This document shows positions 1,987 through 55,253 of a stretch of 64,000 bases of DNA, piece after piece. Position numbers and translations under genes: made by a program. The stretch's first letter is position 1; the number at the start of each line of letters is the position of its first letter. Source of the DNA: Mobula hypostoma (lineage: Eukaryota); the NCBI RefSeq assembly GCF_963921235.1, contig NC_086108.1, positions 46,626,001-46,690,000 of the forward strand, written 5' to 3'. The notes beneath the pieces are model-generated. The model was given only the letters and a program-made list of their open reading frames with translations, made no database searches and was not told the DNA's origin.

Positions 1987-4900
1987 TTAGATTAGATTAT
2001 GAGAAAACACAGTCCTCTTTTATTGTCATTTAGAAATGCATAAGTGCATATATCCCAACATAGGCAGGAAGAGGGATGAGGTCCTGAAGTGTGAGTTTCA
2101 GGAATTAGGCAGAAGGCTGAAGAACATGACCTCAAGGGTGGCGTTCTCAGGATTGCTGCCAGTGCTACGTGACAGTGATGGTAAGAATTGGAGGAGATGG
2201 CAGTTGAATGCATGGCTGAGGAGTTGGTGCAGGGAGCAGGGTTTTAGGTTTTTAGATCATTGGGATCTCTTCTGGGAAAGGTGGGACCTGTACAGATTGG
2301 ATAGGTTGCACCTGAACTCGAGGGGGAGCAATATCCTTGCAGGTAGGTTTGCTAGCATGGTTCGGGAGGGTTTAAACTAATTTGCAAGGGGGATGGGACC
2401 CAGAGCGATAGAGCAGTGAAAGAAGTGCATGAAGTAAAGCCAGATCTAACATACAGAGAGGCTTTGAGGAAAGAGAAGCAGAATAAAGGGTGTAAAGACA
2501 GTAAGGAAGAAGGGCTGAAATGTGTGTACCTCAATGCAAGAAGCATCAGGAACAAAGGTGATGAACTGAGAGCTTGGATACATACATGGAATTATGATGT
2601 AGTGGCCATTACAGAGACTTGGCTGGCACCAGGGCAGGAATGGATTCTCAATATTCCTGGATTTCAGTGCTTTATAAAGGATAAAGAGGGTGGAAGAAGG
2701 GGAGGAGGGGTGGCATTACTGGTCAGGGATACTATTACAGCTACAGAAAGGGTGGGTAATGTAGCAGGATCCTCTTTTGAGTCAGTATGGGTGGAAGTCA
2801 GGAACAGGAAGGGAGCAGTTACTCTACTGGGGGTATTCTATAGACCCCCTGGTAGCAGCAGAGATACAGAGGAGCAGATTAGGAGGCAGATTTTGGAAAG
2901 GTGCAAAAATAACAGAGTTGTTATCATGGGTGACTTTAACTTCCCTAATATTGATTGGCACCTGATTAGTTCCAAGGGTTTAGATGGGGCAGCGTTTGTT
3001 AAGTGTGTCCAGGACGGATTCCTGTCACAGTATGTGGACAGGCCGACCAGGGAGAATGCCATACTAGATCTAGTACTAGGTAATGAACCGGGTCAGGTCG
3101 CAGATCTCTCAGTGGGTGAGCATCTGGGGGACAGGGACCACCGCTCCCTGGCCTTTAACATTATCATGGAAAAGGATAGAATCAGAGAGGACAGGAAAAT
3201 TTTTAACTGGAGAAGGGCAAATTATGAGGCTATAAGGCTAGAACTTGTGGGTGTGAATTGGGATGATGTTTTTGCAGGGAAATGTACTATGGACATGTGG
3301 TCGATGTTTAGAGATCTCTTGCAGGATGTTAGGGATAAATTTGTCCTGGTGAGGAAGATAAAGAATGGTAGGATGAAGGAACCATGGGTGACAAGTGAGA
3401 TGGAAAATCTAGTCAGGAGGAAGAAGGCAGCATACATGAGGTTTAGGAAGCAAGGATCAGCTGGGTCTATTGAGGAATATAGGGAAGCGAGAAAGGAGCT
3501 TAAGAAGGGGCTGAGAAGAGCAAGAAGGGGGCATGAGAAGGCCTTGGCGAGTAGGGTAAAGGAAAACCCCAAGGCATTCTTCAATTATGTGAAGAAAAAA
3601 AGGATGACAGGAGTGAAGTAGGACCAATTAGAGATAAAGGTGGGAAGATGTGTCTGGAGGCTGTGGAAGTGAGCGAGGTCCTCAATGAATACTTCTCTTC
3701 GGTATTCACGAATGAGAGGGAACTTGATGACAGTGGGGACAATTTAAGTGAGGTTGATGTTCTGGAGCATGCTGATATTAAGGGAGAGGAGGTGTTGGAG
3801 TTGTTAAAATACATTAGGACGGATAAGTCCCCGGGGCGTGAAGGAATATTCCCCAGGCTGCTCCATGAGGCGAGGGAAGAGATTGCTGAGCCTCTGGCTA
3901 GGATATTTATGTCCTTGTTGTCCACGGGAATGGTACCGGAGGATTGGAGGGAGGCAAATGTTGTCCCCTTGTTCAAAAAAGGTAGTAGGGATAATCCAGG
4001 TAATTATAGACCAGTGAGCCTACGTCTGTGGTGGGAAAGCTGTTGGAAAAGATTCTTAGAGATAGGATCTCTGGGCATTTAGAGAATCATGGTCTGATCA
4101 GGGAGAGTCAGCATGGCTTTGTGAAGGGCAGATCGTGTCTAACAAGCCTGATAGAGTTCTTTGAGGAGGAAGCCAGGCATGTAGATGAGGGTAGTGCAGT
4201 GGATGTGATCTATATGGATTTTAGTAAGGCATTTGACAAGGTTCCACATGGTAGGCTTACTCAGAAAGTCAGAAGGCATGGGATCCAGGGAAGTTTGGCC
4301 AGGTGGATTCAGAATTGGCTTGCCTGCAGAAAGTAGAGGGTCATGGTGGAGGGAGTACATTCAGATTGGAGTATTGTGACTAGTGGTTTCCCACAAGGAT
4401 CTGTTCTGGGACCTCTACTTTTCGTGATTTTTATTAACGACCTGGATGTGGGGGTAGAAGGGTGGGTTGGCAAGTTTGCAGACGACACAAAGGTTGGTAG
4501 TGTTGTAGACAGTGTAGGGGATTGTGAAAGATTGCAGAGAGACATTGATAGGATGCAGAAGTGGGCTGAGAAGTGGCAGATGGAGTTCAACCCGGAGAAG
4601 TGTGAGGTGGTACACTTTGGAAGGACAAACTCCAAGGCAGAGTACAAAGTAAATGGCAGGATACTTGGTAGTGTGGAGGAGCAGAGGGATCTCGGGGTAC
4701 ATGTCCACAGATCCTTGAAAGTTGCCTCACAGGTGGATAGGGTAGTTAAGAAAGCTTATGGGGTGTTAGCTTTCATAAGTCGAGGGATAGAGTTTAAGAG
4801 TTGCGATGTAATGATGCAGCTCCACAAAACTCTGGTTAGGCCACAACTGGAGTATCGTGTCCAGTTCTGGTCGCCTCACTATAGGAAGGATGTGGAAGCA

Positions 4901-5680
4901 TTGGAAAGGGTACAGAGGAGATTTACCAGGATGCTGCCTGGTTTAGGCAGTATGTATTATGATCAGAAATTAAGGCAGCTAGGGCTTTACCCTTTGGAGA
5001 GAAGGAGGATGAGAGGAGACATGATAGAGGTGTACAAGATAATAAGAGGAATAGATAGAGTGGATAGCCAGCGCCCCTTCCCCAGGGCACCACTGATCAA
5101 TACAAGAGGATATGGCTTTAAGATAAGGGGTGGGAAGTTCAAGGGGGATATTAGAGGAAGGTTTTTAACTCAGAGAGTGGTTGGTGTGTGGAATGCACTG
5201 TCTGAGTCAGTGGTGGAGGCAGATTCACTAGTGAAGTTTCAGGGACTACTAGACAGGTATATGGAGGAATTTAAGGTGGGGGCTTATATGGGAGGCAGGG
5301 TTTGAGGGTTGGCAGAACATTGTGGGCCGAAGGGCCTGTACTGTGCTGTACTATTCTATGTTCTATGTTCTATGTTCTATGTTCTAAAACTTCGAGCTCC
5401 CGACCAGCCTCTCCGATACAGCCTCCCGAGCGCCATCCTCTGCCGAGCGCCTTCGTTTCGACCTCTCCCCGGCCACTGAAACACGCAAAGCTGAGATTTT
5501 GGGGCCTTCAGCTCCGGAGATTCCGGTTACCACACAGTAGCAGTGGCAGCGTATCGGGCATTTCAGAAGTTTTCCAGATGTTCCTCCGTACTCTCATGTC
5601 TGTCTCCATCAAATCAGAATTGTACACGGTCCCCTGACAGATAACAGATATTCATCACCACGCCGCCACCTTCACCCCCT
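1987..5680 (-). mobile_element. Non-autonomous non-LTR element with (TCTAA)n tail, interrupted by CR1 (pieces ~1987-2046 and ~5387-5680)
   Basis: Both pieces align to the uninterrupted sibling at 11956-12583 (ttagattagattatgag...tttattgtcatttag; aaaacttcgagc; tgtctccatcaaatcagaattgt). Confidence 0.65.
2047..5386 (+). mobile_element. CR1 LINE, 5'-truncated but near full-length: ORF1 C-terminal esterase plus ORF2 (APE-RT) with ~3 lesions
   Basis: ORF1 remnant to 2380 has an SGNH-like DRLHLN motif. ORF2 has APE motifs YLNARSI, ITETWL, GDFN, LDLV and RT motifs [13 protein letters not shown]. It is broken at ~3619, ~4025 and 4334. The 3' tail is (TTCTATG)n at 5354-5386. Confidence 0.95.
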
Positions 5681-15594: not shown

Positions 15595-18043
15595 TAGAAC
15601 ATAGAACATAGAATAGTACAGCACAGTACAGGCCCTTTGGCCCACAATGTTGTGCCGACCCTCAAACCCTGCCTCAGATATAACCTCCCACCTTAAATTC
15701 CTCCATATACCTGTCTAGTAGTCCCTTAAATTTCACTAGTGTATCTGCCTCCATCAGTGACTCAGGCAGTGCATTCCATGCACCAACCACTCTCTCAGTA
15801 AATAACCTTTCTCTAATATCCCCCTTGAACTTCCCACCCCTTACCTTAAAGCCATGTCCTCTTGTATTGAGCAATGGTGCCCTGGGGAAGAGGTGCTGGC
15901 TGTCCACTCTATCTATTCCTCTTAATATCTTGTATAGCTCTATCATGTCTCCTCTCATCCTCCTCTCCAAAGAGTAAAGCCCTAGCTTCCTTAATCTCTG
16001 ATCATAATGCATGCTCTCTAAACCAGGCAGCATCCTGGTAAATCTCTGTACCCTTTCCAATGCTTCCACATCCTTCCTATAGTGAGGTGACCAGAACTGG
16101 ACACAGTACTCCAAGTGTGACCTAACCAGAGCCTTATAGAGCTGCATCATTACCTCGCGACTCTTAAACTCTATCCCTCGACTTATGAAAGCTAACACCC
16201 CATAAGCTTTCTTAACTACCCTATCTACCTGTGAGGCAACTTTCAGGGATCTGTGGACATGTACCCCCAGATCCCTCTGCTCCTCCACACTACCAAGTAT
16301 CCTGCCATTTACTTTGTACTCTGTCTTGGAGTTTGTCCTTCCAAGGTGTACCACCTCACACTTCTCCGGGGTGAACTCCATCTGCCACTTCTCAGCCCAC
16401 TTCTGCATCCTATCAATGTCTCTCTGCAATCTTCGACAATCCTCCACACTATCCACAACACCACCAACCTTTGTTTCGTCTGCAAACTTGCCAACCCACC
16501 CTTCTACCCCCACATCCAGGTCATTAATAAAAATCATGAAAAGTAGAGGTCCCAGAACAGATCCTTGTGGGACACCACTAGTCACAACCCTCCAATCCGA
16601 ATGTACTCCCTCCACTACGACCCTCTGCTTTCTGCAGGCAAGCCAATTCTGAATCCACTTGGCCAAACTTCCCTGGATCCCATGCCTTCTAACTTTCTGA
16701 ATAAGCCTACTGTGTGGAACCTTGTCAAGTGCCTTACTAAAATCCATGTAGATCACATCCACTACACTACCCTCATCTATATGCCTGGTCACCCCCTCAA
16801 AGAACTCTATCAGGCTTGTTAGACACAATCTGCCCTTCACAAAGCCACGCTGACTGTCCCTGATCAGACCATGATTCTCTAAATGCCCAGAGATCCTACT
16901 TCTAAGAATCTTTTCCAACAGCTTTCCCAGACGTAAGGCTTACTGGTCTATAATTACCCGGGCTATCCCTATTACCTTTTTTGAACAAGGGGACAACATT
17001 CGCCTCCCTCCAATCCTCCAGTACCATTCCCGTGGACAACGAGAAGATAAAGATCCTAGCCAAAGGCTCAGCAATCTCTTCCCTCGCCTCGTGGTGCAGC
17101 CTGCGGAGTATTCCATCAAGCCCGGGGACTTATCCATCCTAATGTATTTTAACAACTCCAACACCTCCTCTCCCTTAATATCAACATGCTCCATAACATC
17201 AACCTCACTCATATTGTCCTCACTGTCATCAAGTTCCCTCTCATTGGTGAATACCGAAGAGAAGTATTCATTGAGGACCTTGCTCACTTCCACAGCCTCC
17301 AGGCACATCTTCCCAGCTTTATCTCTAATCAGTCCTACCTTCACTCCTGTCATCCTTTTGTTCTTCACATAATTGAAGAATGCCTTGGGATTCTCCTTTA
17401 TCCCTTACCCTTCTCATGCCCCCTCTTACTCTCCTCAGCCCCTTCTTAAGTTCCTTTCTTGCTACCCTATATTCCTCAATAGACCCATCTGATCCTTGCT
17501 TCCTAAACCTCATGTATGCTGCCTTCTTCCGCCTAACTAGATATTCCACCTCACTTGTCACCTGTGGTTCCTTCACCCTACCATTCTTTATCTTCCTCAT
17601 CGGAACAAATTTATCCCTAACATCCCGCAAGAGATCCCTAAACATCAACCACACTTCCATAGTACATTTCCCAGCAAAGACATCATCCCAATTTACACCC
17701 ACAAGTTCTAGCCTTATAGCCTCATAATTTGCCCTTACCCAACTAAAAATTTTCCTGTCCTCTCTGAATCTATCCTTTTCCATGATAATGCTAAAGGCCA
17801 GGGAGCGGTGGTAACTGTCCCCCAGATGCTCACCCACTGAGAGGTCTGTGACCTGACCCGGTTCATTACCTAATACTAGATCTAGTATGGCATTCCCCCT
17901 TGTCAGCCCGTCAACATACTGTGACAGGAATCCATCCTGGACACACTTAACAAACTCTGCTCCGTCTAAACCATTGGAACTAATTAGGTGCCAATCAATA
18001 TTAGGGAAGTTAAAGTCACCCATGATAACAACCCTGTTATTTT
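15595..18043 (-). mobile_element. CR1 LINE, 5'-truncated, same subfamily as 2047-5386
   Basis: Minus ORFs 17325-18023, 16940-17368 and 15674-16918 are nearly identical to the + copy. The RT motif reads FADE here. Tail (TTCTATG)n at 15595-15613. Confidence 0.95.
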
Positions 18044-19076
18044 GTGTGTGCTGTATTTATCATTGCAAGATAGCTGCTCCCAGTTTATTACAGATCAGCT
18101 GAATATTTGTATATTTCGTCAAAACAAACAGAGGCCACTGGTATCCAGCAAAGTCTTCCAGGTTGGACAGGGAGTTTTAAAAAGCCATTGAAATGCATGG
18201 CAAGGTTAGGAAAAGGACATTTCAGAACAGAATCACGGTGTATCAAGAAAGCAGGACAAATAAGTTAGGTGTAGTAAAGGCTCAAATACAAACATGGGAA
18301 AAAACTTTGGAGAGAAGTTATAGATGTGAACTGCTAAAGGTAAGCATTCACTCCTGTTCTTCTCTGTGCATGAACTGTGCCTCAACCCATTGATTCATTC
18401 CTTTATAACTTTCTCCACTGATCGTATACCTTCCAAGTGTTAAAATTTCAATTAACATAGTATCCATTTTTTCGTAAAAAAGATTGCACATTCCTATTGT
18501 TCATATTCCAAAAAAGAAGGCCTTATAATTTGACTTCTAAATGGCCGAGTTGTAAATTTAGGATAGTGCATGCTTGCTCTGGATTCACCCTCCATAGGAA
18601 ATATTTTCCCTGCATATTACAGTGCTACATCACATAATCACTTTCAGCACCTCAGTTTTATCACACTTCTTCTTCTGAACTTCACCTCTAGATGCCTGTA
18701 TCAATACAGTCTCTGCCTTTCCAATAATAATATCTCCTTCTTTGAGGTAAAATGCTGAGAAACCCTTCAACATGCGCATAGTGCATAGCACAGGGACGTG
18801 AAACTTCTCTTTAACTCAGTTGTCGCAGCAAAGAACCACAATAAATTACATGTACTTCTGTATGAAAAATTCAAAGTATGACAGCCACTAATCTTGATTT
18901 AAAAGTCAATGCCATTTTTGGCTAGAAACTCATCATTTAGAAGTATAGTGACAAAGTGACATCCAAAATCATAAAATGTTCAATAGCTGTAGAAGGGGGC
19001 GCGAGGGTGGGGGTTGTGAGTTCAGCGTGCCTCCCACTTCCACCTTCAAAGGCTGTGTTCACTAGAAGCTTACACA

Positions 19077-21347: not shown

Positions 21348-23272
21348 AAACATAGAAACATAGAAACATAGAAAATAGGTGCGGGAGTAGGCCATTCGGC
21401 CCTTCGAGCCTGCACCGCCATTTATTATGATCATGGCTGATCATCCAACTCAGAACCCTGCACCAGCCTTCCCTCCATACCCCCTGATCCCCGTAGCCAC
21501 AAGGGCCATATCTAACTCCCTCTTAAATATAGCCAATGAACTGGCCTCAACTGTTTCCTGTGGCAGAGAATTCCACAGATTCACCACTCTCTGTGTGAAG
21601 AAGTTTTTCCTAATCTCGGTCCTAAAAGGCTTCCGCTTTATCCTCAGACTGTGACCCCTCGTTCTGGATTTCCCCAACATCGGGAACAATCTTCCTGCAT
21701 CTAGCCTGTCCAATCCCTTTCGGATTTTATACTTTTCAATCAGATCCCCCCTCAATCTTCTAAATTCCAACGAGTACAAGCCCAGTTCATCCAGTCTTTC
21801 TTCATATGAAAGTCCTGCCATCCCAGGAATCAATCTGGTGAACCTTCTTTGTACTCCCTCTATGGCAAGGATGTCCTTCCTCAGATTAGGGGACCAAAAC
21901 TGCACACAATACTCTAGGTGTGGTCTCACCAAGGCCTTGTACAACTGCAGTAGTACCTCCCTGCTCCTGTACTCGAATCCTCTCGCTATAAATGCCAACA
22001 TACCATTCGCCTTTTTCACCGCCTGCTGTACCTGCATGCCCACTTTCAATGACTGGTGTATAATGACACCCAGGTCTCGTTGCACCTCCCCTTTTCCTAA
22101 TCGGCCACCATTCACATAATAATCTGTTTTCCTATTTTTGCCACCAAAGTGGATAACTTCACATTTATCCACATTAAATTGCATCTGCCATGAATTTGCC
22201 CACTAACCCAACCTATCCAAGTCACCCTGCATCCTCTTAGCATCCTCCTCACAGCTAACACTGCCGCCCAGCTTCATGTCATCCGCAAACTTGGAGATGC
22301 TGCATTTAATTCCCTCATCCAAGTCATTAATATATATTGTAAACAACTGGGGTCCCAGCACTGAGCCTTGCGGTACCCCACTAGTCACTGCCTGCCATTC
22401 TGAAAAGGTCCCGTTTATTCCCACTCTTTGCTTCCTGTCTGCTAACCAATTCTCTATCCGCATCAATACTTTACCCCCAATACTGTGTGCTTTAAGTTTG
22501 CACACTAATCTCCTGTGTGGGATCTTGTCAAAAGCCTTTTGAAAATCCAAATATACCACATCCACTGGTTCTCCCCTATCCACTCTACTAGTTACATCCT
22601 CAAAAAATTCTATGAGTTTCGTCAGACATGATTTTCCTTTCACAAATCCATGCTGATTTTGTCCAATGATTTCACCACTTTCCAAATGTGCTGTTATCAC
22701 ATCTTTGATAACTGACTCCAGCAGTTTCCCCACCACTGACGTTAGGCTAACCGGTCTATAATTCCCCGGTTTCTCTCTCCCTCCTTTTTTAAAAAGTGGA
22801 GTTACATTAGCCACCCTCCAATCCTCAGGAACTAGTCCAGAATCTAACGAGTTTTGAAAAATTATCACTAATGCATCCACTATTTCTTGGGCTACTTCCT
22901 TAAGCACTCTGGGATGCAGACCATCTGGCCCTGGGGATTTATCTGCCTTTAATCCCTTCAATTTACCCAACACCACTTCCCTACTAACATGTATTTCGCT
23001 CAGTTCCTCCATCTCACTGGACCCTCTGTCCCCTACTATTTCTGGAAGATTATTTATATCCTCCTTAGTGAAGACAGAACCAAAGTAATTATTCAATTGG
23101 TCTGCCATGTCCTTGCTCCCCATAATCAATTCACCTGTTTCTGTCTGTAGGGGACCTACATTTGTCTTTACCAGTCTTTTCCTTTTTACATATCTATAAA
23201 AGCTTTTACAGTCAGTTTTTATGTTCCCTGCCAGTTTTCTCTCATAATCTTTTTTCCCCTTCCTAATTAAGA
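21348..23272 (-). mobile_element. CR1 LINE (second subfamily), 5'-truncated, antisense in intron 1
   Basis: ORFs 22203-23282 ([13 protein letters not shown]) and 21450-22184 are in frame and separated by one stop. Tail (TTTCTATG)n at 21348-21375. Confidence 0.93.
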
Positions 23273-23751
23273 TCTGGTTCACACAGAATGCTTATTTAAA
23301 TTTAATTTCCTTATCTCTCATTGTCTGCCCTCTAAAATAACCATAGAAACACTTTCTGTCAACAGCCCTTTCCTCCGGTACTCCTGATCTTTGCCTTCTT
23401 TTTGTCACGCCTTCCACTCATCCTGCATTTTTCCCTTTTGCCGGGGAGTATCCACACCAGGTTTAAGCTATAATCTTCTATTCAGCATTTAGCAAAGATG
23501 TACATAATCAGCTTTGAGTCTATTAGCTGCTGACTTAGAATCCTGTACCCTTGTCTTTACTCAGAGAAGTTGTTTGATGGTGCCAAGAATGAGACCACAA
23601 GTCCTTGCCATCCATGTCTAGCTACTTTCAGGAAGTAATGAACACATTTTGGCCACTTGAATAAATGCCTTAATGGAAAGAACAAAGAATAATCAAAACA
23701 GTGGGCTTGAAATAGAAACTAAATGTGAAGTCTAAAATAGAATTCGATATA

Positions 23752-25325: not shown

Positions 25326-27099
25326 GCTCTTTGAAGTCCATGAAGCTTGCTGCTCAGGCTGTTTCCAATACAGTGACCAATGAGGAATCATAGAATGACT
25401 GTACGATAAAGGCCATTCAGTTCTTCATGTCCTCGATGGCTCTTGACAGAGAATTCTCTGATCCACTGGCCTTTTCTCTGTCATTTTGAAACTTTTTATT
25501 TACCATGTATTTTACCAGTTCCATTTTGAGTGGACCCTCTCTTTACTACAGCTCCACACACGTCAAAAATGGTTCCTCCTTCACATATTCTTAATTCTCT
25601 TCCCATCTACTTTATTCTTGCATTGTCAAGTCCTCACCTCCTCCACCTCGGGAACATCTACTGCAGTGGCAGCAGCAGAATCACGAAGGAGAGCATAGAC
25701 GCATGATTTACTGCTGCTCCCTAAGATAGCGCTAATGGCTGGAGCACAGATTGCTGAGGCGTCCTTTTGATTGCTGGCAAGAGAATTAGCAGAGTTTGTT
25801 TGGCGGAAGGCTGAGCTTCCAGCAAAAAACTCAGAGTCTGGGGACTTACACTTGAGCTGCATTCAGGCATTCCATTCCAGGATCAGCCATGATGGAATGG
25901 TAGAACAGACTCAACGTGCTGAATGGCCTCATTTTGTTTCGATGTCTCACTGTCTTATGGTCCTCCTTTGATCAAGAGACTCTGTGATGTCATTGCTAAT
26001 GGGATTGCTCACCTCTACCTTGCTGAAAAGGATTTTCTCTCTGCCCTACATGAAGACCTGTGCAAGAATGGAGCCAGGGGTTTGCAATAATAACCTTGAT
26101 ATTTTTCACTGATCTTGCCAGCGCACCTACCGGTACTAACGTTGGTTTATTCTTCTCACATGTATCAAGCTACAGTGAAAATCTCGTATTGCATACCATT
26201 CATACAGATCAAACCATTACACAGTGCAATGAGCTAGAATAAGGTAAAATAATAACAATACAGAATACTACTGAGAAAGTGAAGTGTAAGTAACCAAAAA
26301 GTGCAAGATCATAATGAGGTAGATTGTGAGGCTAAGAGACCATTTTATTGTTCAAAAGGTCCATTCAAGAGTCTGATACCAGTGAGATAGAAGCTGTCCC
26401 TGGGCCTTGTGGTGCATGCTTTCAGGCTGTTGTATCTTCTGCCTGATGGGAGGGGAGAACAGAGAATGCTCGAATGTCCTTGATTATGCTGGCTACTCTA
26501 CTGAGGCAGCAAGAAGTGTAGGCAGAGTCCATAGAGGGGAGGTTGGTTCCTGTGACCACAATTTTCTGCAGTTTCTCGTGGTCATGTGCAGAGCAGTTGC
26601 CATACCAAGCTGCAAAGCATTCACACAGAAGGCTTCCTAGAGCACATCAATAAAAATTGGCAAGAACGAGCACAGACATGCCGAATTTCTTTGGCCTCCT
26701 GAGGAAGTCGAGGTGTTAGTGAGCTTTCTTGGCTGTAACATCAATGTGGTTGGACCAGGAGTTTATAAATTCCTATACAGTCATACAGTCTATACACAGA
26801 AACAGGCCCTTCAGCCCATCTATTCCATGCTGAACCATTTAAATAGCCTACTCACATTGACCTGCACCAGGATGATAGCCCTACCAACCATGTACCTATC
26901 CAAACTTCTCTTAAACATTATAGAAACATAGAAAATAGGTGCAGGAGTAGGCCATTCAGTCCTTCGAGCCTGCACTGCCATTCAGTATGATCATGGCTGA
27001 TCATCCAACTCAAAACCCTGTACCAGCCTTCCCTGGTAATCAAACTCACATACACAACTTGCACAGGCAGCTCATACCATGCCCTCGCAACACTCTGAG

Positions 27100-27331
27100 T
27101 GAAGCACCTTCAATAACTCCAAAAGACTGAGGTTTGGTAAAATACTGAAAGGCTTTTATTTGCCGTACAATACGACCTCCACGGTGAGTGTCTGCCCCCG
27201 GACTGAGGGGAAGGGGCAAGGTGAAACACCTTTATTCAGGGATCTGTGGGAGGAGCCACAGGGGCAGTCAGCAGAGAGGCGTGTCCAGACAGTTAACCCA
27301 GTTACAACATATATACATATGGTTTACCACC
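27100..27331 (-). repeat. Gypsy 3' LTR
   Basis: Direct repeat of 31294-31526 with ~14 substitutions and 2 small indels by manual count. Confidence 0.95.
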
Positions 27332-27402
27332 TTCATCCCTCCTTTTTTTAAAAAAAGAGTCCCACGGGGTGAAGTGACTGACAATATTTACAACAAGTGT
27401 AT

Positions 27403-30400
27403 TTACAGGTTAAGTCTATCAGGCGGTCGAGTCCATCGCTGTGATCTACGTAGCACCAGTGGTGATTGCGTCGGCAATGGTGTTTGTGCTGGCTCCGGCC
27501 TGACTTGAGGTGCCAGCACGTTAGGCGTTAATCTCTCGTGCATGTGCATCGCGCCCGGTATGGGAGAGTCGTGTGGTGTCTGTGTAGGGCTTGGAGTGTG
27601 CGGTGTCTCGTGGGTACGTATATCGGTGGGTACGGGGTCAATAGTTACCACGGAGTGTTCAGGGTAGGGGGCCAGTGCTAATGGAGACCGCGTCCTCCCG
27701 CCCATCAGGTAAAACCCTGTAGGCATACTGAGGGTTTGCATGAAGCAAGTGAACCCTCTCGACTATCGGGGAGTATTTATTGCTCCTGGCATGTTTCCGG
27801 AGCAGCACTGGCCCCAGGGATGTCAGCCAAGTTGGTAGGGTGGTTCCAGTGGTCGACTTTCTGGGAAAAGAAAAGAGCCACTCATGAGGGGTGGCATTGG
27901 TGACCGTGCATAACAGGGAGCGGATGGGGTGGAGTGCCTCGGGAAGGACCTCCTGCCAGCGGGACACCGGCAGTCCCTTTGACCTGAGGGCTAAGAGTGT
28001 GGCTTTCCACACTGTGGCATTCTCCTTCTCTACCTGTCCATTCCCCCGGGGATTATAGCTCGTGGTCCTACTGGTTGCAATTCCCCTAGTCAGCAGGTAT
28101 TGGCGCAGCTCGTCACTCATAAACGGGGACCCTCTGTCACTGTGGATATAGCATGGGTATCCGAACAGAGTGAAGAGCTTGCGCAGGGCTTTTATAACTG
28201 ACGTGGTAGTGGTATCGGGGCAGGGGATGGCGAAGGGGAACCGTGAATACTCATCAATAATGTTAAGAAAGTACACATTGCAGTCGGTGGAGGGAAGGGG
28301 GCCCTTAAAGTCAACACTCAGTCGCTCAAAGGGGCGGGTGGCCTTGATGAGTGGTGCCTTTTCGGGCCGGTAGAAGTGCGGTTTGCACTCTGCGCAGACT
28401 TGGCAGTCCCTGGTCATTGTCCTCATCTCCTCAAGGGAGTAAGGCAGGTTCCGGGCTTTCACGAAGTGGAAAAGCCAGGTGACTCCCGGGTGGCAAAGGC
28501 CTACATGTAGGGCGTATAGCCGGTCGATCTGCGCGCTGGCGCATGTTCCCCAGGATAGGGCGTCGGAGGGCTCGTTGAGCTTCCCAGGCCTGTACATGTC
28601 ATAGTTGCAGGTGGAGAGTTCGATTCTCCACCTCAGAATTTTATCCTTTTTGATTTTGCTCTGCTGTTGGTTATTAAACATGAATGCGACTGAGCGCTGG
28701 TCAGTTAGCAGGGTGAACCTTTTGCCGGCGAGATAGTGCCTCCAGTGCCTAATTGCTTCCACTATGGCCTGGGCCTCTTTCTCTACCGCAGAGTGCCGAA
28801 TTTCAGGGCCTTGAAGGGTACGGGAGAAGAACGCCACTGGTCTTCCTGCCTGGTTGAGGGTAGCAGCCAGCGCAAAGTCGGAGGCGTCACTCTCTACTTG
28901 GAAGGGAATGGCCTCATCCACCGCATGCATTGCTGCTTTGGCAATGTCTCCTTTAATGCAGCTGAAGGCCGCGCGGGCCTCAGCTGAGAGGGGGAATGTG
29001 GTGGATTTGACCAGGGGGCGGGCCTTGTCTGCGTAGTTAGAGACCCATTGGGTGTAATATGAAAAGAAGCCCAGGCACCTTTTGAGGGCTCTGAGGGTGT
29101 TGGGAAGAGGGAGTTCCAACAGGGGGCGCATACGGTTGGGGTCAGGGCCAATGACTCCATTCTCCACGACACACCCAAGGATAGCAAGTCAGGTGGTCCC
29201 GAATACACACTTGTCCTTGTTATAGGTGAGATTGAAAGCTTTGGCCGCTTGGAGAAATTTTTGGAGGTTGTTGTCGTGATCCTGCCGGTTGTGACCGCAG
29301 ATGGTGATGTTATCCAGATATGGGAACGTGGCCTTCAGTTGGCACTCGTCCACCATCCAGTCCATTGCCCTCTGGAAGACAGATACACCATTCGTGACAC
29401 CGAAGGGGATGCGCAGGAATTGATAAAGCCTGCCGTCTGCCTCGAAGGCAGTGTAAGGGCGGTCCTCCCGGCGGATGGGGAGCTGATGGTAAGCGGATTT
29501 TAGGTCTATGGTCGAGTACACCTTGTACTGTGCTATCTGATTGACCATATCCGCGATGTGGGGTAGAGGGTGCGCGTCGAGCTGCGTGAACCTATTGATG
29601 GTCTGGCTATAGTCCACGACCATCCTATTCTTCTCCCTATTCCAAACAACCACCACCTGCGCCCTTCAAGGACTTGTGCTTGCCTCAATGACCCCCTCCC
29701 TGAGCAGCCGCTGCACCTCCGACTTAATGAAAGGTCTGTCCCCCGCGCTGTACCTCCTGCTTTTAGTTGCCACAGGTTTACAGTCGGGGGTCAGGTTGGC
29801 GAACAGCGGTGGGGGAGGGATCCTGAGGGTGGAGAGGCCGCAAGTGGTGTCGGTAGTGCGGCAGTTGGCATGGTGTTGGGTGGGATGTGTGGGTCGGTGT
29901 GTGTGTGTGGTCAGTAGCGGGGTACGTGACGTATCTCTACAAAACAGGGGATTTACAACAGTGATTGGTGGGAGGGGCCCATCATACTTCATTGTCACAC
30001 TTTTCAGGTGGTTCTGGAAGTCGAGCCCCAATAGCACAGGGGCACACAGTTGAGGCATGGCCAGTAACGTAAAGTCTCGATATTCTGTGCCCTGCACCAC
30101 TAGCGTCGCTACACAACCCCCCCGGATGTCTGTTGTATGCGACCCGGAAGCCGTGGTGACCCTCTGACTTACCGGCCGTATCACGAGTCCGAAATGCTGC
30201 ACCGTGTCCGAGTGGATAAAACTCTCCGTGCTGCCTGTGTCAAACAGGCAGCTTGTCCTGTGCCCCTCCACCAGGATGTCCATCATTGACCTTGCGAGCT
30301 GGTGGGGAGAGCTTTGGTCGAGGGTCACGGAAGCCAGGGTTGGGTTGCTGTCTTGGTCCGGGGCAGTGGGGTGCCCCGTGAGCACTCGTTGGTCGTAGGT

Positions 30401-31267
30401 GGTGGGAGGTGGCGCCGACCAAGATGGCCGCCCCCATGTCTCGCACGTGGTGGCGGCGTGCAGGGAAGATGGCGACAGGCAAGATGGTGACCCCCACGTC
30501 TCGCACGCGGCGCTGCTCGATTCCGCTCGCGGTTTTGACTTACAGACCTTGGCGAAGTGGCCCTTCTTTCTGCAGCTGGAGCACCTAGCTTGTCGGGCCG
30601 GGCAACATTTCCGGGGGTGCTTCTCCAGTCTGCAGAAGTAGCAGTTCGTGGACTCACGACTGGCGGCAGCCGAGGTCGATTCGCCAGCGGGTTGCGGGGT
30701 CTGCGGCGCCCACGAGGCCATCGGGGGATCGCATGCCTGGAGAGCCTCGGAGTTATGCAGAGCAGCCTCCAACGTATCAGCCAGCTCGATCGCCAAACTT
30801 AAGTTAAGATTGGCTTTTTCCAGCAGCCACTGGCGCACATACACTGACCTGGTCCCCGTGACGAAGGCGTCTCTCACTAGGAGTTCTGCATGCTGCGTCG
30901 CCGTCAGCTCCTGGCAATTGCAGGCTCGCACGAGTGTCTGTAGGGCCCGGACAAACTCAGCACTCGATTCCCTGGACCGTTGTTGCCGTGTCGCTAAGCG
31001 ATGCCAAGCATAGACGCTGTTTATTGGCCACAGGTATTGTCTTTTAAGTGCGTTCATCGCGCCGTCGTAGTTCGGCTGGTCTCTGATCAGCGAATAAACC
31101 CGTGGACTGACCCTGGAGAGTAGAACTCTGCGCTTCGCTACGGGGTCGGTCGCTTTAATCTCCTCTAGATACGCTTCGAAGCAGGCCAGCCAGAGTTCGA
31201 AAGCGTTTCCAGCTTCAGGTGTTTGCGGATTGAGGTCTAATTTGTCTGGTCGCAGTGCATGTTCCAT
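27403..31267 (-). pseudogene. Gypsy single-frame gag-pol with two premature TGA stops (29666, 29189) and a frameshift near 27680
   Basis: Two CCHC-type knuckles (CYFC..H..C; CSSCRKKGHFAKVC), protease LFDTGS, RT DLKSAYHQ/PFGVTNG/YLDN, RNase H ESDASD/EKEAQA/LTDQ, integrase H..H..CQVC, VDFKGP, HSDRG, GNGQVE. The three ORFs share one frame. Confidence 0.93.
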
Positions 31268-31293
31268 GTTTTAAAATGTACAGCGAATAAAAT

Positions 31294-31526
31294 TGAAGCA
31301 CCTTCAATAACTCCAAAAGACTGAGGCTTGGTAAAATACCGAAAGGCTTTTATTCGCTGTACAACAATACGACCTCCACGGTGAGTGTCTGCCCCTGGAC
31401 TGAGGGGGAGGGGCAAGGCAAATCACCTTTATACAGGACTCTGTGGGAGGAGCCACAGGGGCAGTCAGCAGAGGGGCGTGTCCAGACAGTTAACCCAGTT
31501 ACAACATATATATATGGTTTACCACA
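31294..31526 (-). repeat. Gypsy 5' LTR
   Basis: On minus: TGTGG...TTCA, TATAAA at 31433-31428 and AATAAA at 31354-31349. Confidence 0.95.
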
Positions 31527-32139
31527 CTGAGTGAAGAAGTTTCCCCTCATGTTCCCCTTAAACTTTTCACCTTTCACCCTTAAGCCATGACCTCTAGTTG
31601 TAGTCCCACCCAACATCAGTGGAAAAAGCCTGCTTGCATTGTGCCTTATCTGTACCCTTTATAATTGTGTATACCTCTATCAAATGTCCCCTCAGTCTTC
31701 TACATTCCAAGGAATAAAGTCCTAATCAATTCAATCTTTCCACATAACTTATAAATTTTCTCTGTAATTTTGTATACCTCTATCAAATCTCTCCTCAGAC
31801 TTCTACATTCCAAGGAATAAAATCCTAACCTATTCAATCTTTCCATATAACTTATAAATTTTCTCTGTAATTCCACATCAATGTGGTTGAACTGGGAATT
31901 TATAATTTCCTATAATATCATTGTTGTGCATACTCCAGAGGCTGCCCTCTGGGAATCTACAGCATAATTAACACACAGCATTAACCTCAAGGAGCTGGCA
32001 TCAGTGCTGCTCTTGTTCCCAGCTTGGCTACAGGCCACTCATACCCAGAGTCACCGTGTGCAGGCACACATCTCTGAGGAAATGTCTGTGCTGCACACTG
32101 TGTCAGTGGATGAGCTGATTCACCCTTTTCCCAAGATTG

Positions 32140-53805: not shown

Positions 53806-54436
53806 GGATACAATCTCACTGGCTCTCCACTTGGCCCTGGACCACCTGGACAACAGCAATACCTATGTCAGGCTGCTGTTATTAATTATATTTTGGTATT
53901 CAATACTATCATTCTATCAGTACAAATCAACAAGTTTCAAAACCTCTGTACCTTCCTCTGCAATAGGATTCTTAACGCCCTTATCAGGATAACAAGTCAG
54001 TGCAGATCGGTAATATCATCTCCTCCTCTTTAACATTCAACATAGGCTCAGCTCAAGGATGCAGGCTTAGCCTGCTGCTCTACTCTCTCTGCGTCATGAC
54101 CATGGGGCTAGGCACAAACAGCATTTATTAATTTGCCAAATGGACCCGCTGTCACTGGGCCCAACACATTGACAGAAGCACAAAGAAGGTATGACAATGG
54201 CTAAAGTTAATTGGAAGCTTGAGGAGATTTGGTACATCATCAAAGACTTTAGCAAATTTCTACAGATGTACCACAGAGAGCATTCTTACTGGGTGCATCA
54301 CTGCCTGGTACAGAGGCTCCAGTGCAGAGGATCAAAAGAAGGAGAATAGGGATGTGGACTCAGTTAGTTCCATCACAGGTGCAAGATTCCCATCAATGAG
54401 AACATCTTTAAAAGGTGGTGGCTCAAGAAGACAACA

Positions 54437-55253
54437 GAAGTACAGGGCTACGGTAGGAAACTTTGTCACATGGTGTGAGCAGAATTATCTGCAGCTTAAT
54501 GTGAAAAAGACTAAGGAGCTGGTGGTAGACCTGAGGAGAGCTAAGGTACCGGTGACCCCTGTTTCCATCCAGGGGGTCAGTGTGGACATGGTGGAGGATT
54601 ACAAATACCTGGGGATACGAATTGACAATAAACTGGACTGGTCAAAGAACACTGAAGCTGTCTACAAGAAGGGTCAGAGCCGTCTCTATTTCCTGAGGAG
54701 ACTGAGGTCCTTTAACATCTGCCAGACGACGCTGAGGATGTTCTACGAGTCTGTGGTGGCCAGTGCTATCATGTTTGCTGTTGTGTGCTGGGGCAGCAGG
54801 CTGAGGGTAGCAGACACCAACAGAATCAACAAACTCATTCGTAAGGCCAGTGATGTTGTGGGGATGGAACTGGACTCTCTCACGGTGGTGTCTGAAAAGA
54901 GGATGCTGTCTAAGTTGCATGCCATCTTGGTCAATGTTTCCCATCCACTACATAATGTACTGGGTGGGCACAGGAGTACATTCAGCCAGAGACTCATTCC
55001 ACCGAGATGCAGCACAGAGCGTCATAGGAAGTCACTCCTGCCTGTGGCCATCAAACTTCACAACTCCTCCCTTGGAGGGTCAGACACCCTGAGCCGATAG
55101 GCTGGTCCTGGACTTATTTCATAATTTACTGGCATAATTTACATATTACTATTTAACTATTTATGGTTCTATTACTATTTATTATTTATGGTGCAACTGT
55201 AATGAAGACCAATTTCCCCCGGGATCAATAAAGTATGACTATGACTATGACTA
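54437..55253 (+). mobile_element. Young 5'-truncated Rex1/Babar LINE
   Basis: Open frame to 55100 (LQLNVKKTKELVVD, YKYLGI, RLYFLRRLRSF, FYESVVAS, SHPLH); tail aataaagt(ATGACT)3. Confidence 0.9.

Follow-up and report, generated by a model that had tools for sequence, protein, structure and literature searches.

To our knowledge, self-priming of reverse transcription has been shown experimentally only for the yeast Tf elements. The initial 11 bases of Tf1 RNA pair and RNase H cuts between bases 11 and 12 (PMC7175516), and about half of the Tf1 cDNA retains a single-stranded primer binding site (PBS) (PMC11042837). For Tf2 the choice of start site decides competence (PMC5341516), and self-priming has been proposed for Tj1 of Schizosaccharomyces japonicus (PMC4600332). 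Self-priming has also been predicted for plant Tcn1 chromoviruses and for the TAR (Houba, Osr-1) copia elements, from a complement of at least 10 nt located 0-5 nt past the LTR (PMC6317226); since the plant TAR copia elements stand outside the chromoviruses, the principle is not new. The accessible text of PMC6238403 lists Gypsy clades without PBS data.

Here we analyse a stretch of 64,000 nucleotides (the window) from Mobula hypostoma, in which the initial annotation had described a Gypsy element whose PBS is a perfect complement of its own LTR. Our results show that this feature is real and conserved across an animal Gypsy lineage, and that self-priming is its most likely explanation.

Organization of the element

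The element is a dead Gypsy copy of 4.4 kb on the minus strand of the DNA of its host, a ray. It has the Ty3/Gypsy domain order protease-RT-RNase H-integrase (Pfam) and the ends of such elements, with two LTRs, TG...CA termini, a polypurine tract (PPT) and a short target duplication, and the solved structures nearest to its proteins are those of Ty3. The 3' LTR of this copy begins with GG. Two in-frame stops, at about 29667 and about 29190, interrupt the coding frame, which is lost close to the integrase end. The features are, in window positions and all on the minus strand:

31527..31531, target-site duplication CTCAG, upstream copy
31294..31526, 5' LTR, TG...CA, 233 nt, matching the 3' LTR at 216 of 230 aligned bases
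31428..31433, TATA box TATAAA, also present in 57 of 59 subfamily-A 5' LTRs
31397..31403, initiator-like TCAGTCC, predicted +1 at the A at 31401; three fossil copies (see below) end at +1/+2
31348..31401, predicted primer RNA, 54 nt in this copy, as suggested by the TATA-initiator pair and the fossils
31348..31363, LTR arm pairing with the PBS (inverted repeat, fold, covariation), with the predicted cut at its 3' end
31349..31354, AATAAA poly(A) signal within the arm
31294..31347, remaining R and U5; an inner stem begins directly after the arm (fold, family comparison)
31293, spacer of one base (A) between the LTR end and the PBS
31277..31292, PBS, complement of the arm, without TGG
27659..31267, gag-protease-RT-RNase H-integrase in a single frame, no chromodomain
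27332..27349, PPT
27100..27331, 3' LTR, 232 nt; its arm copy (27169-27154) has two substitutions
27095..27099, target-site duplication CTCAG, downstream copy

We take TCAGTCC to be initiator-like from general knowledge of the motif. In typical copies, which do not have the 3-nt duplication of the window copy, the predicted primer RNA measures 51 nt. Long open frames and many dispersed repeats also occur at 2356-5305, 15674-18056, 22203-23291 and 54195-55100 of the window; from their resemblance we presume these regions to be LINE fragments, and the Gypsy element is itself inserted within one such dispersed repeat.

The 5' LTR is followed by a single base (31293) and then by the 16-mer TTTTATTCGCTGTACA (31292-31277, minus strand), which forms a perfect inverted repeat with 31363-31348, the two being 55 nt apart; the gag ATG is at 31267, only 26 nt past the LTR. 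The 16-nt complementarity reported initially was thereby reproduced with every coordinate unchanged. The RNA fold of 31410-31255 has a z of -3.9, none of 200 shuffles being equally stable, and in 20 dinucleotide shuffles of the 200 nt upstream of gag the longest complementary run was 8. No TGG follows the LTR in this copy, no tRNA genes were found in the 64-kb window, and an Rfam search across the element gave no match at E<=1.

Compensatory changes within the ray genome

Compensatory changes between PBS and LTR, which the initial annotation had suggested seeking among genomic copies, were not seen among the 30 closest copies, where there is decay only and no covariation, and were found between two subfamilies, A and B. 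Subfamily B, the gag tree of which is poorly resolved, was recovered by a search with diverged gag. In total, 114 distinct copies were compared, with the arm readable in 110, and two B copies are counted as A in the tally. Pairs 8, 11 and 15 differ between the subfamilies by compensated changes on both sides, and pair 9 varies within B (n=49), as C:G in 19 copies, T:A in 20, T:G in 6, C:A in 3 and G:A in 1. For the subfamily copies the Fisher P is 1.3e-5, a value overstated owing to kinship; because the copies are related, the covariation in the ray genome amounts to about four events and not a hundred. Pair 16 is T:G in 14 of 60 subfamily-A copies and T:T in 44 of 49 subfamily-B copies; with this pair unconstrained, the helix conserved in the ray genome is one of 15 bp.

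The pairing across families and hosts

The named proteins closest to the element come from rays (Mobula, 89-90%; Hypanus, about 67%), and its gag relatives form 1350 clusters. Of ten clusters looked up, six gave named hosts: two catsharks, two nematodes, a sea cucumber and a moth. Relatives were also sought in viral contigs, where none was found. From metagenome assemblies we obtained 80 loci via RT alignment; in 45 of them the gag start could be placed and the upstream DNA was long enough, while 35 with no gag start or with less than 120 nt upstream were excluded. A perfect run of at least 11 pairs is present in 35 of the 45 loci and a clean helix is missing in 10, and in 960 shuffles (48 loci, 20 each) the run was never longer than 10.

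The loci and the ray copies were grouped at 70% identity into 29 families, and the PBS was anchored one base past a CA; wherever both LTRs could be located, this CA mostly coincides with the LTR end. With the register set at LTR end plus one, 25 families form 10 or more of the 11 pairs, and four fail. The 25 pairing families have 24 distinct 11-mers, and the letters of the PBS track those of its own LTR, the PBS-arm match averaging 12.6 of 13 within a family and 8.2 across families. In a column-wise permutation, covariation extends up to pair 16; pairs 14-16, which had not been used in the selection, covary (P of 0.04, <0.001 and <0.001, respectively), and no covariation was found at pairs 17-20. 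The absence of a tRNA-type TGG, claimed initially for the window copy, extends to all 25 pairing families, no TGG being found up to 5 bases from the LTR end in any of them. The spacer base is A in 21 families, G in 3 and T in 1, in a register that the anchoring rule itself fixes. A stem of at least 4 bp starts at the base past the arm in 21 of the 25 (shuffles: mean 7.8, maximum 13). G-U pairs account for 3 of 328 pairs in the helix and for 15 of 109 in the adjacent stem, the latter count being inflated by the choice of the longest stem with G-U allowed. The helix value is low for an RNA helix and fits a copying of the arm into the PBS.

As judged from these alignments, the pairing is kept while the letters change, both between subfamilies and across families. 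That the inverted repeat arose by chance, or by a DNA rearrangement of the window copy, would gain something from the A/T-rich make-up of the hexamer and from nothing else; the same junction is present in 749 copies, and the compensated changes, together with shuffles that stay at or below 10, refute this explanation, to which we give practically no credence.

The arm ends in the hexamer AATAAA in 8 of the 25 families, in ATTAAA in 6 and in another in 11. Counted from the arm end, A occupies position -11 in 21 families and G position -10 in 24, preceded by pyrimidines, and no purine preference is seen at arm base 16. We also observed (G/A)CCT at +1 to +4 past the arm, alongside the near-fixed G of pair 10 and A of pair 11; the near-fixed G/A and the (G/A)CCT may be recognition bases for the predicted cut. 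A splice acceptor at the AG of -11/-10 was considered and dropped: in four of the 25 families, and likewise in subfamily B, the site reads TG, and PBS pairing extends over it.

Promoter and predicted start of the RNA

In subfamily A, TATAAA and TCAGT(C/T) are spaced by 31-32 nt in 54 of 59 copies, and in 51 of those 54 the initiator A lies 51 nt upstream of the arm end; in the window copy it is the A at 31401. In subfamily B (e.g., L064-L068) and in the 3' LTR of the window copy (27331-27100), the TATAAA is replaced by AATAAA, with the spacing to the initiator unchanged. Across families, no TATA at a fixed distance to the arm was found. The sole other family with a TATA-initiator pair near the arm, L150, has a start that implies an 11-nt primer, and it has exactly 11 pairs. 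Given this start and the lack of a common promoter distance, the internal position of the arm may be special to some branches. The earlier proposal that the primer segment begins about 40 nt inside the transcript is upheld for the ray family by the TATA-initiator pair and by three fossil ends, and may not hold for all relatives.

These observations bear on a Tf1-like primer of 11-16 nt, for which transcription would start at or just before the arm and the upstream TATA-initiator pair would serve another transcript. The A and G at -11 and -10, after pyrimidines, are initiator-like, L150 has its TATA-initiator at the arm, and the pairing stops sharply past base 16, as such a primer would have it. 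However, the ray TATA-initiator spacing places +1 at 51, base 16 shows no purine preference, and three fossils end at the predicted +1, in a search that by its design excluded stops at 11-16. Two insertions, L300 and L301, do end at the PBS, but with internal microhomologies. For the ray family we regard so short a primer as highly improbable; for the invertebrate relatives, a start of this kind may apply. We also noted an 11-nt look-alike of the PBS inside gag (window 31098-31088), to which L300 jumps directly from the PBS; for L301 the target of the jump is a 6-nt match within RNase H/integrase.

The poly(A) signal and the helix

The initial annotation makes no mention of the AATAAA in the arm. 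In the fold prediction, made for the window copy, AAUAAA is mostly unpaired without the PBS and fully paired with it. The 3' copy of AAUAAA is predicted to stay open, because no PBS comes after it. A canonical hexamer ends the arm in 14 of the 25 families and hence not throughout the lineage, and the helix of L123 and that of L180 do not include the canonical hexamer.

It could be asked whether hiding the 5' poly(A) signal, as proposed for the HIV-1 poly(A) hairpin, is the sole role of the helix, with a host RNA or tRNA fragment acting as the primer. The predicted closing of AAUAAA by the PBS and the 14 families with AATAAA or ATTAAA at the arm end speak for it, and retroviruses with a poly(A) signal in R must silence the 5' copy (PMC12789967). 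Masking, however, does not need a partner that starts one base past the LTR end, the hexamer is a different one in 11 of the 25 families and is outside the helix in L123 and L180, and one host RNA cannot fit 24 different 11-mers. Moreover, a search for other continuations, confined to the PBS followed by two non-T bases, gave three matches (two jumps into the element and one fold-back), with foreign RNA after the PBS in none of them. We thus see little prospect for masking as the only role.

Fold-back insertions of the predicted primer copy

With LTR RNA as the primer, and plus-strand synthesis reading into it, some insertions are predicted in which the LTR end, the spacer and the PBS run on into R in reverse complement. 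We found 52 such fold-back insertions (fossils) in the genome, together with 749 ordinary junctions, and none with the reversed-pattern control. The pattern required the predicted register, and by design no stop at 11-16 was detectable. Forty of the 52 extend as far as the LTR start, which gives units of about 405 bp that have a U3 end on either side; L284 is tallied here, but stops at 33 and then jumps. A 5-bp target duplication with at most one mismatch flanks 25 of the 40, and because so many have one, fold-backs were inserted in that form. Seven of the 52 continue through the PPT into pol and five stop early, at 50, 50, 52, 55 and 161, the stop at 55 being at a later insertion. The stops at 50, 50 and 52 compare with a start at 51 that had been predicted earlier from TATA and initiator (chance about 2e-4). 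Among individual cases, L281 has three extra bases after the stop and then the target duplication, the duplication of L290 (stop at +1/+2) matches at 4 of 5 positions, and L224 (stop at +1/+2) is joined to the element body via a 5-nt microhomology. For subfamily B, 11 of 14 matches are fold-backs and the other three are ordinary copies.

A second product was seen in 7 of 66 loci, where U3-R-arm is followed by T, about 25 bases of reversed U5 and then U5 again, with target duplications in six. The succession arm, T and reversed U5 is the junction expected at the boundary between primer and minus-strand DNA.

For 32 fossils the left arm was compared with the right one; the two agree at a subfamily site in 27 of 28 readable cases, and the median divergence is 0.041 between fossil arms versus 0.064 between loci. 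This agreement fits both a fold-back of the molecule on itself and a like partner RNA, and would not separate the two. A simple DNA inversion between the PBS and the 3' arm was rejected for most fossils, as it is contradicted by LTR-start ends with target duplications, and also by L267, which ends in a near-whole LTR. Larger rearrangements, with the inverted copy reaching far into the element or back to gag, were observed in L267, L268, L272, L273 and L298.

Read from genomic sequence, these insertions show that, in the germ line, the arm-PBS pairing was a junction at which RT primed or switched; the products became integrated, with target duplications. They also support an RNA start at the initiator. 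Since a 16-nt PBS copy suffices for fold-back, the fossils leave the length of the primer unfixed. The stops at +1/+2 could also reflect run-off from a second, uncut RNA at its 5' end; such stops would locate the start just as well, and not the primer length. The self-priming put forward initially gains support from the covariation, from the absence of TGG in all 25 pairing families and from the inserted arm-U5 products in the predicted register.

A proposed priming cycle

Taking these results together, we think it likely that the element primes itself in cis, the primer being a capped RNA, about 51 nt long, that is cut after AAUAAAA, and that the pairing of arm and PBS also masks the 5' poly(A) signal. 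Transcription would begin, as the fossils support, with the initiator A that precedes the arm end by 51 nt. Arm and PBS would then pair in a helix of 15-16 bp stacked on a short U5 stem, a modelled structure that agrees with the covariation; this helix is predicted to hide the 5' AAUAAA and to leave the 3' copy open. By analogy with Tf1, the RNA would be cut just after AAUAAAA, most likely by the RNase H of the element. RT may next extend the cut end, copying the spacer, U5 and the short R below the cut, which would give the junction found in seven insertions, and the minus-strand product would jump to the 3' end. Plus-strand synthesis would read back into the primer, and the PBS would be re-copied from the arm in each cycle, as the depletion of G-U and the fossils suggest; under such re-copying, the pairs would stay Watson-Crick and changes in the arm would be carried into the PBS. 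A long primer copy left untrimmed may fold back on its own R or jump to genomic RNA, a putative route to the inverted-LTR insertions. From what is known of poly(A) sites, the R left below the cut for the first jump would be only about 10-30 nt, which counts against a cut in cis.

This point is met if the primer is another copy of the arm, namely the 3' end of genomic RNA or a short LTR transcript that ended prematurely, trimmed to AAUAAAA, priming in cis (as a circle) or in trans on an uncut template, which would keep a long R for the first jump. Such a primer would suit the fixed register in which the arm ends with the poly(A) hexamer, and fossils that pass through U3 (40 of 52) or through U3 and PPT into pol (7 of 52), often continuous with 3'-end sequence. 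Run-through is, however, also expected from an ordinary jump, because the R copy pairs with the 3' R; the three initiator stops among the 52 fossils are not predicted by it, and the conserved stem directly past the arm (21 of 25 families) is what would be expected at a local cut site. We judge priming by another arm copy to be unlikely, while giving it more weight than the other alternatives, and retain the cut in cis as the preferred model.

Relation to other elements of the ray genome

The initial annotation had seen no chromodomain, and the domain search agrees: neither a chromodomain nor a Tf2-type SH3 module was found in the window copy or in six relatives, and both were found in control elements. 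In an RT-RNase H tree of 19 rows the lineage forms one clade (100/100), separate from the chromodomain clade (100/100); a tree with the lineage as sister to the chromodomain elements is retained at p-AU 0.056, in a set of the same 19 rows that holds no named reference elements. L214 groups with chromodomain elements in a quick tree. RT-RNase H trees, subject to a long-branch warning, also place the lineage apart from control elements of the ray genome that we take to be Gmr1-like and Mag-like, and these have a TGG tRNA-type PBS. Other young elements (L203-L208, L215-L217) have integrase before RT, long open frames, near-identical LTRs and a TGG-type PBS.

The lineage is not filed as a member of Tf1/sushi, as it has no chromodomain or SH3 module and a different primer layout. 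A broader claim is that it evolved, apart from Tf1/sushi, a tRNA-free priming in which a capped leader, about 50 nt long, is cleaved at the poly(A) signal and serves in the manner of a tRNA, a single helix both silences and primes, and the genome records RT intermediates; as a whole we advance this tentatively, as a possibility with somewhat less than even chances.

The full-text literature that we searched contains no report of self-priming in this lineage, and no description of such fold-back insertions; an earlier mention is possible. Should the priming be tRNA-free, neither the supply of tRNA nor tRNA fragments would give control over a large animal lineage, and annotation software that insists on a tRNA PBS would miss or misjudge it. 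The findings also bear on whether hairpin priming in LTR elements is ancestral or arose repeatedly. Fold-back insertions allow primer junctions and start sites to be read from a genome alone, an approach open to any family whose PBS is unexplained.

Comparison with known systems

The nearest parallel for the poly(A) signal is the HIV-1 poly(A) hairpin, in which AAUAAA is likewise held in a 5' stem (PMC12789967). HIV-1 differs in being tRNA-primed; in the ray element the masking strand is the PBS itself, which is missing at the 3' end. The plant Tcn1 and TAR elements belong to other lineages and hosts, and the accessible text of PMC6317226 is silent on a poly(A) signal in the helix and on fossil products.

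Within the ray genome, the chromodomain-type elements L220-L222, which we take to be sushi-type, are similar in having a one-base spacer and a PBS of 10-13 nt that complements their own LTR. They differ in the position of the arm, 174-238 nt from the LTR end and about 30 nt past a TATA-like stretch, and have no AATAAA or ATTAAA in the LTR stretch examined. A Chromo domain was found in L218 and L221, and not in L222. Two kinds of self-priming thus appear to coexist in this genome.

With Tf1 and Tf2 of S. pombe and with Tj1, the lineage shares the absence of a tRNA site, a PBS that complements its own R and the right polarity for minus-strand priming; as in Tf1, a copy of the PBS is left at the cDNA's 3' end. 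Unlike these three elements, it has neither a chromodomain nor a Tf2-type SH3 module, and its arm lies 21-87 nt from the PBS, forms a helix of up to 16 bp and ends in a poly(A)-like hexamer. Whereas the Tf1 primer is the 11-base 5' terminus of the RNA, the ray arm is located about 36 nt into the predicted transcript, with +1 located 51 nt before the arm end. Finally, the ray genome differs from what is described for Tf1, Tf2 and Tj1 in holding fold-back insertions of the primer copy.
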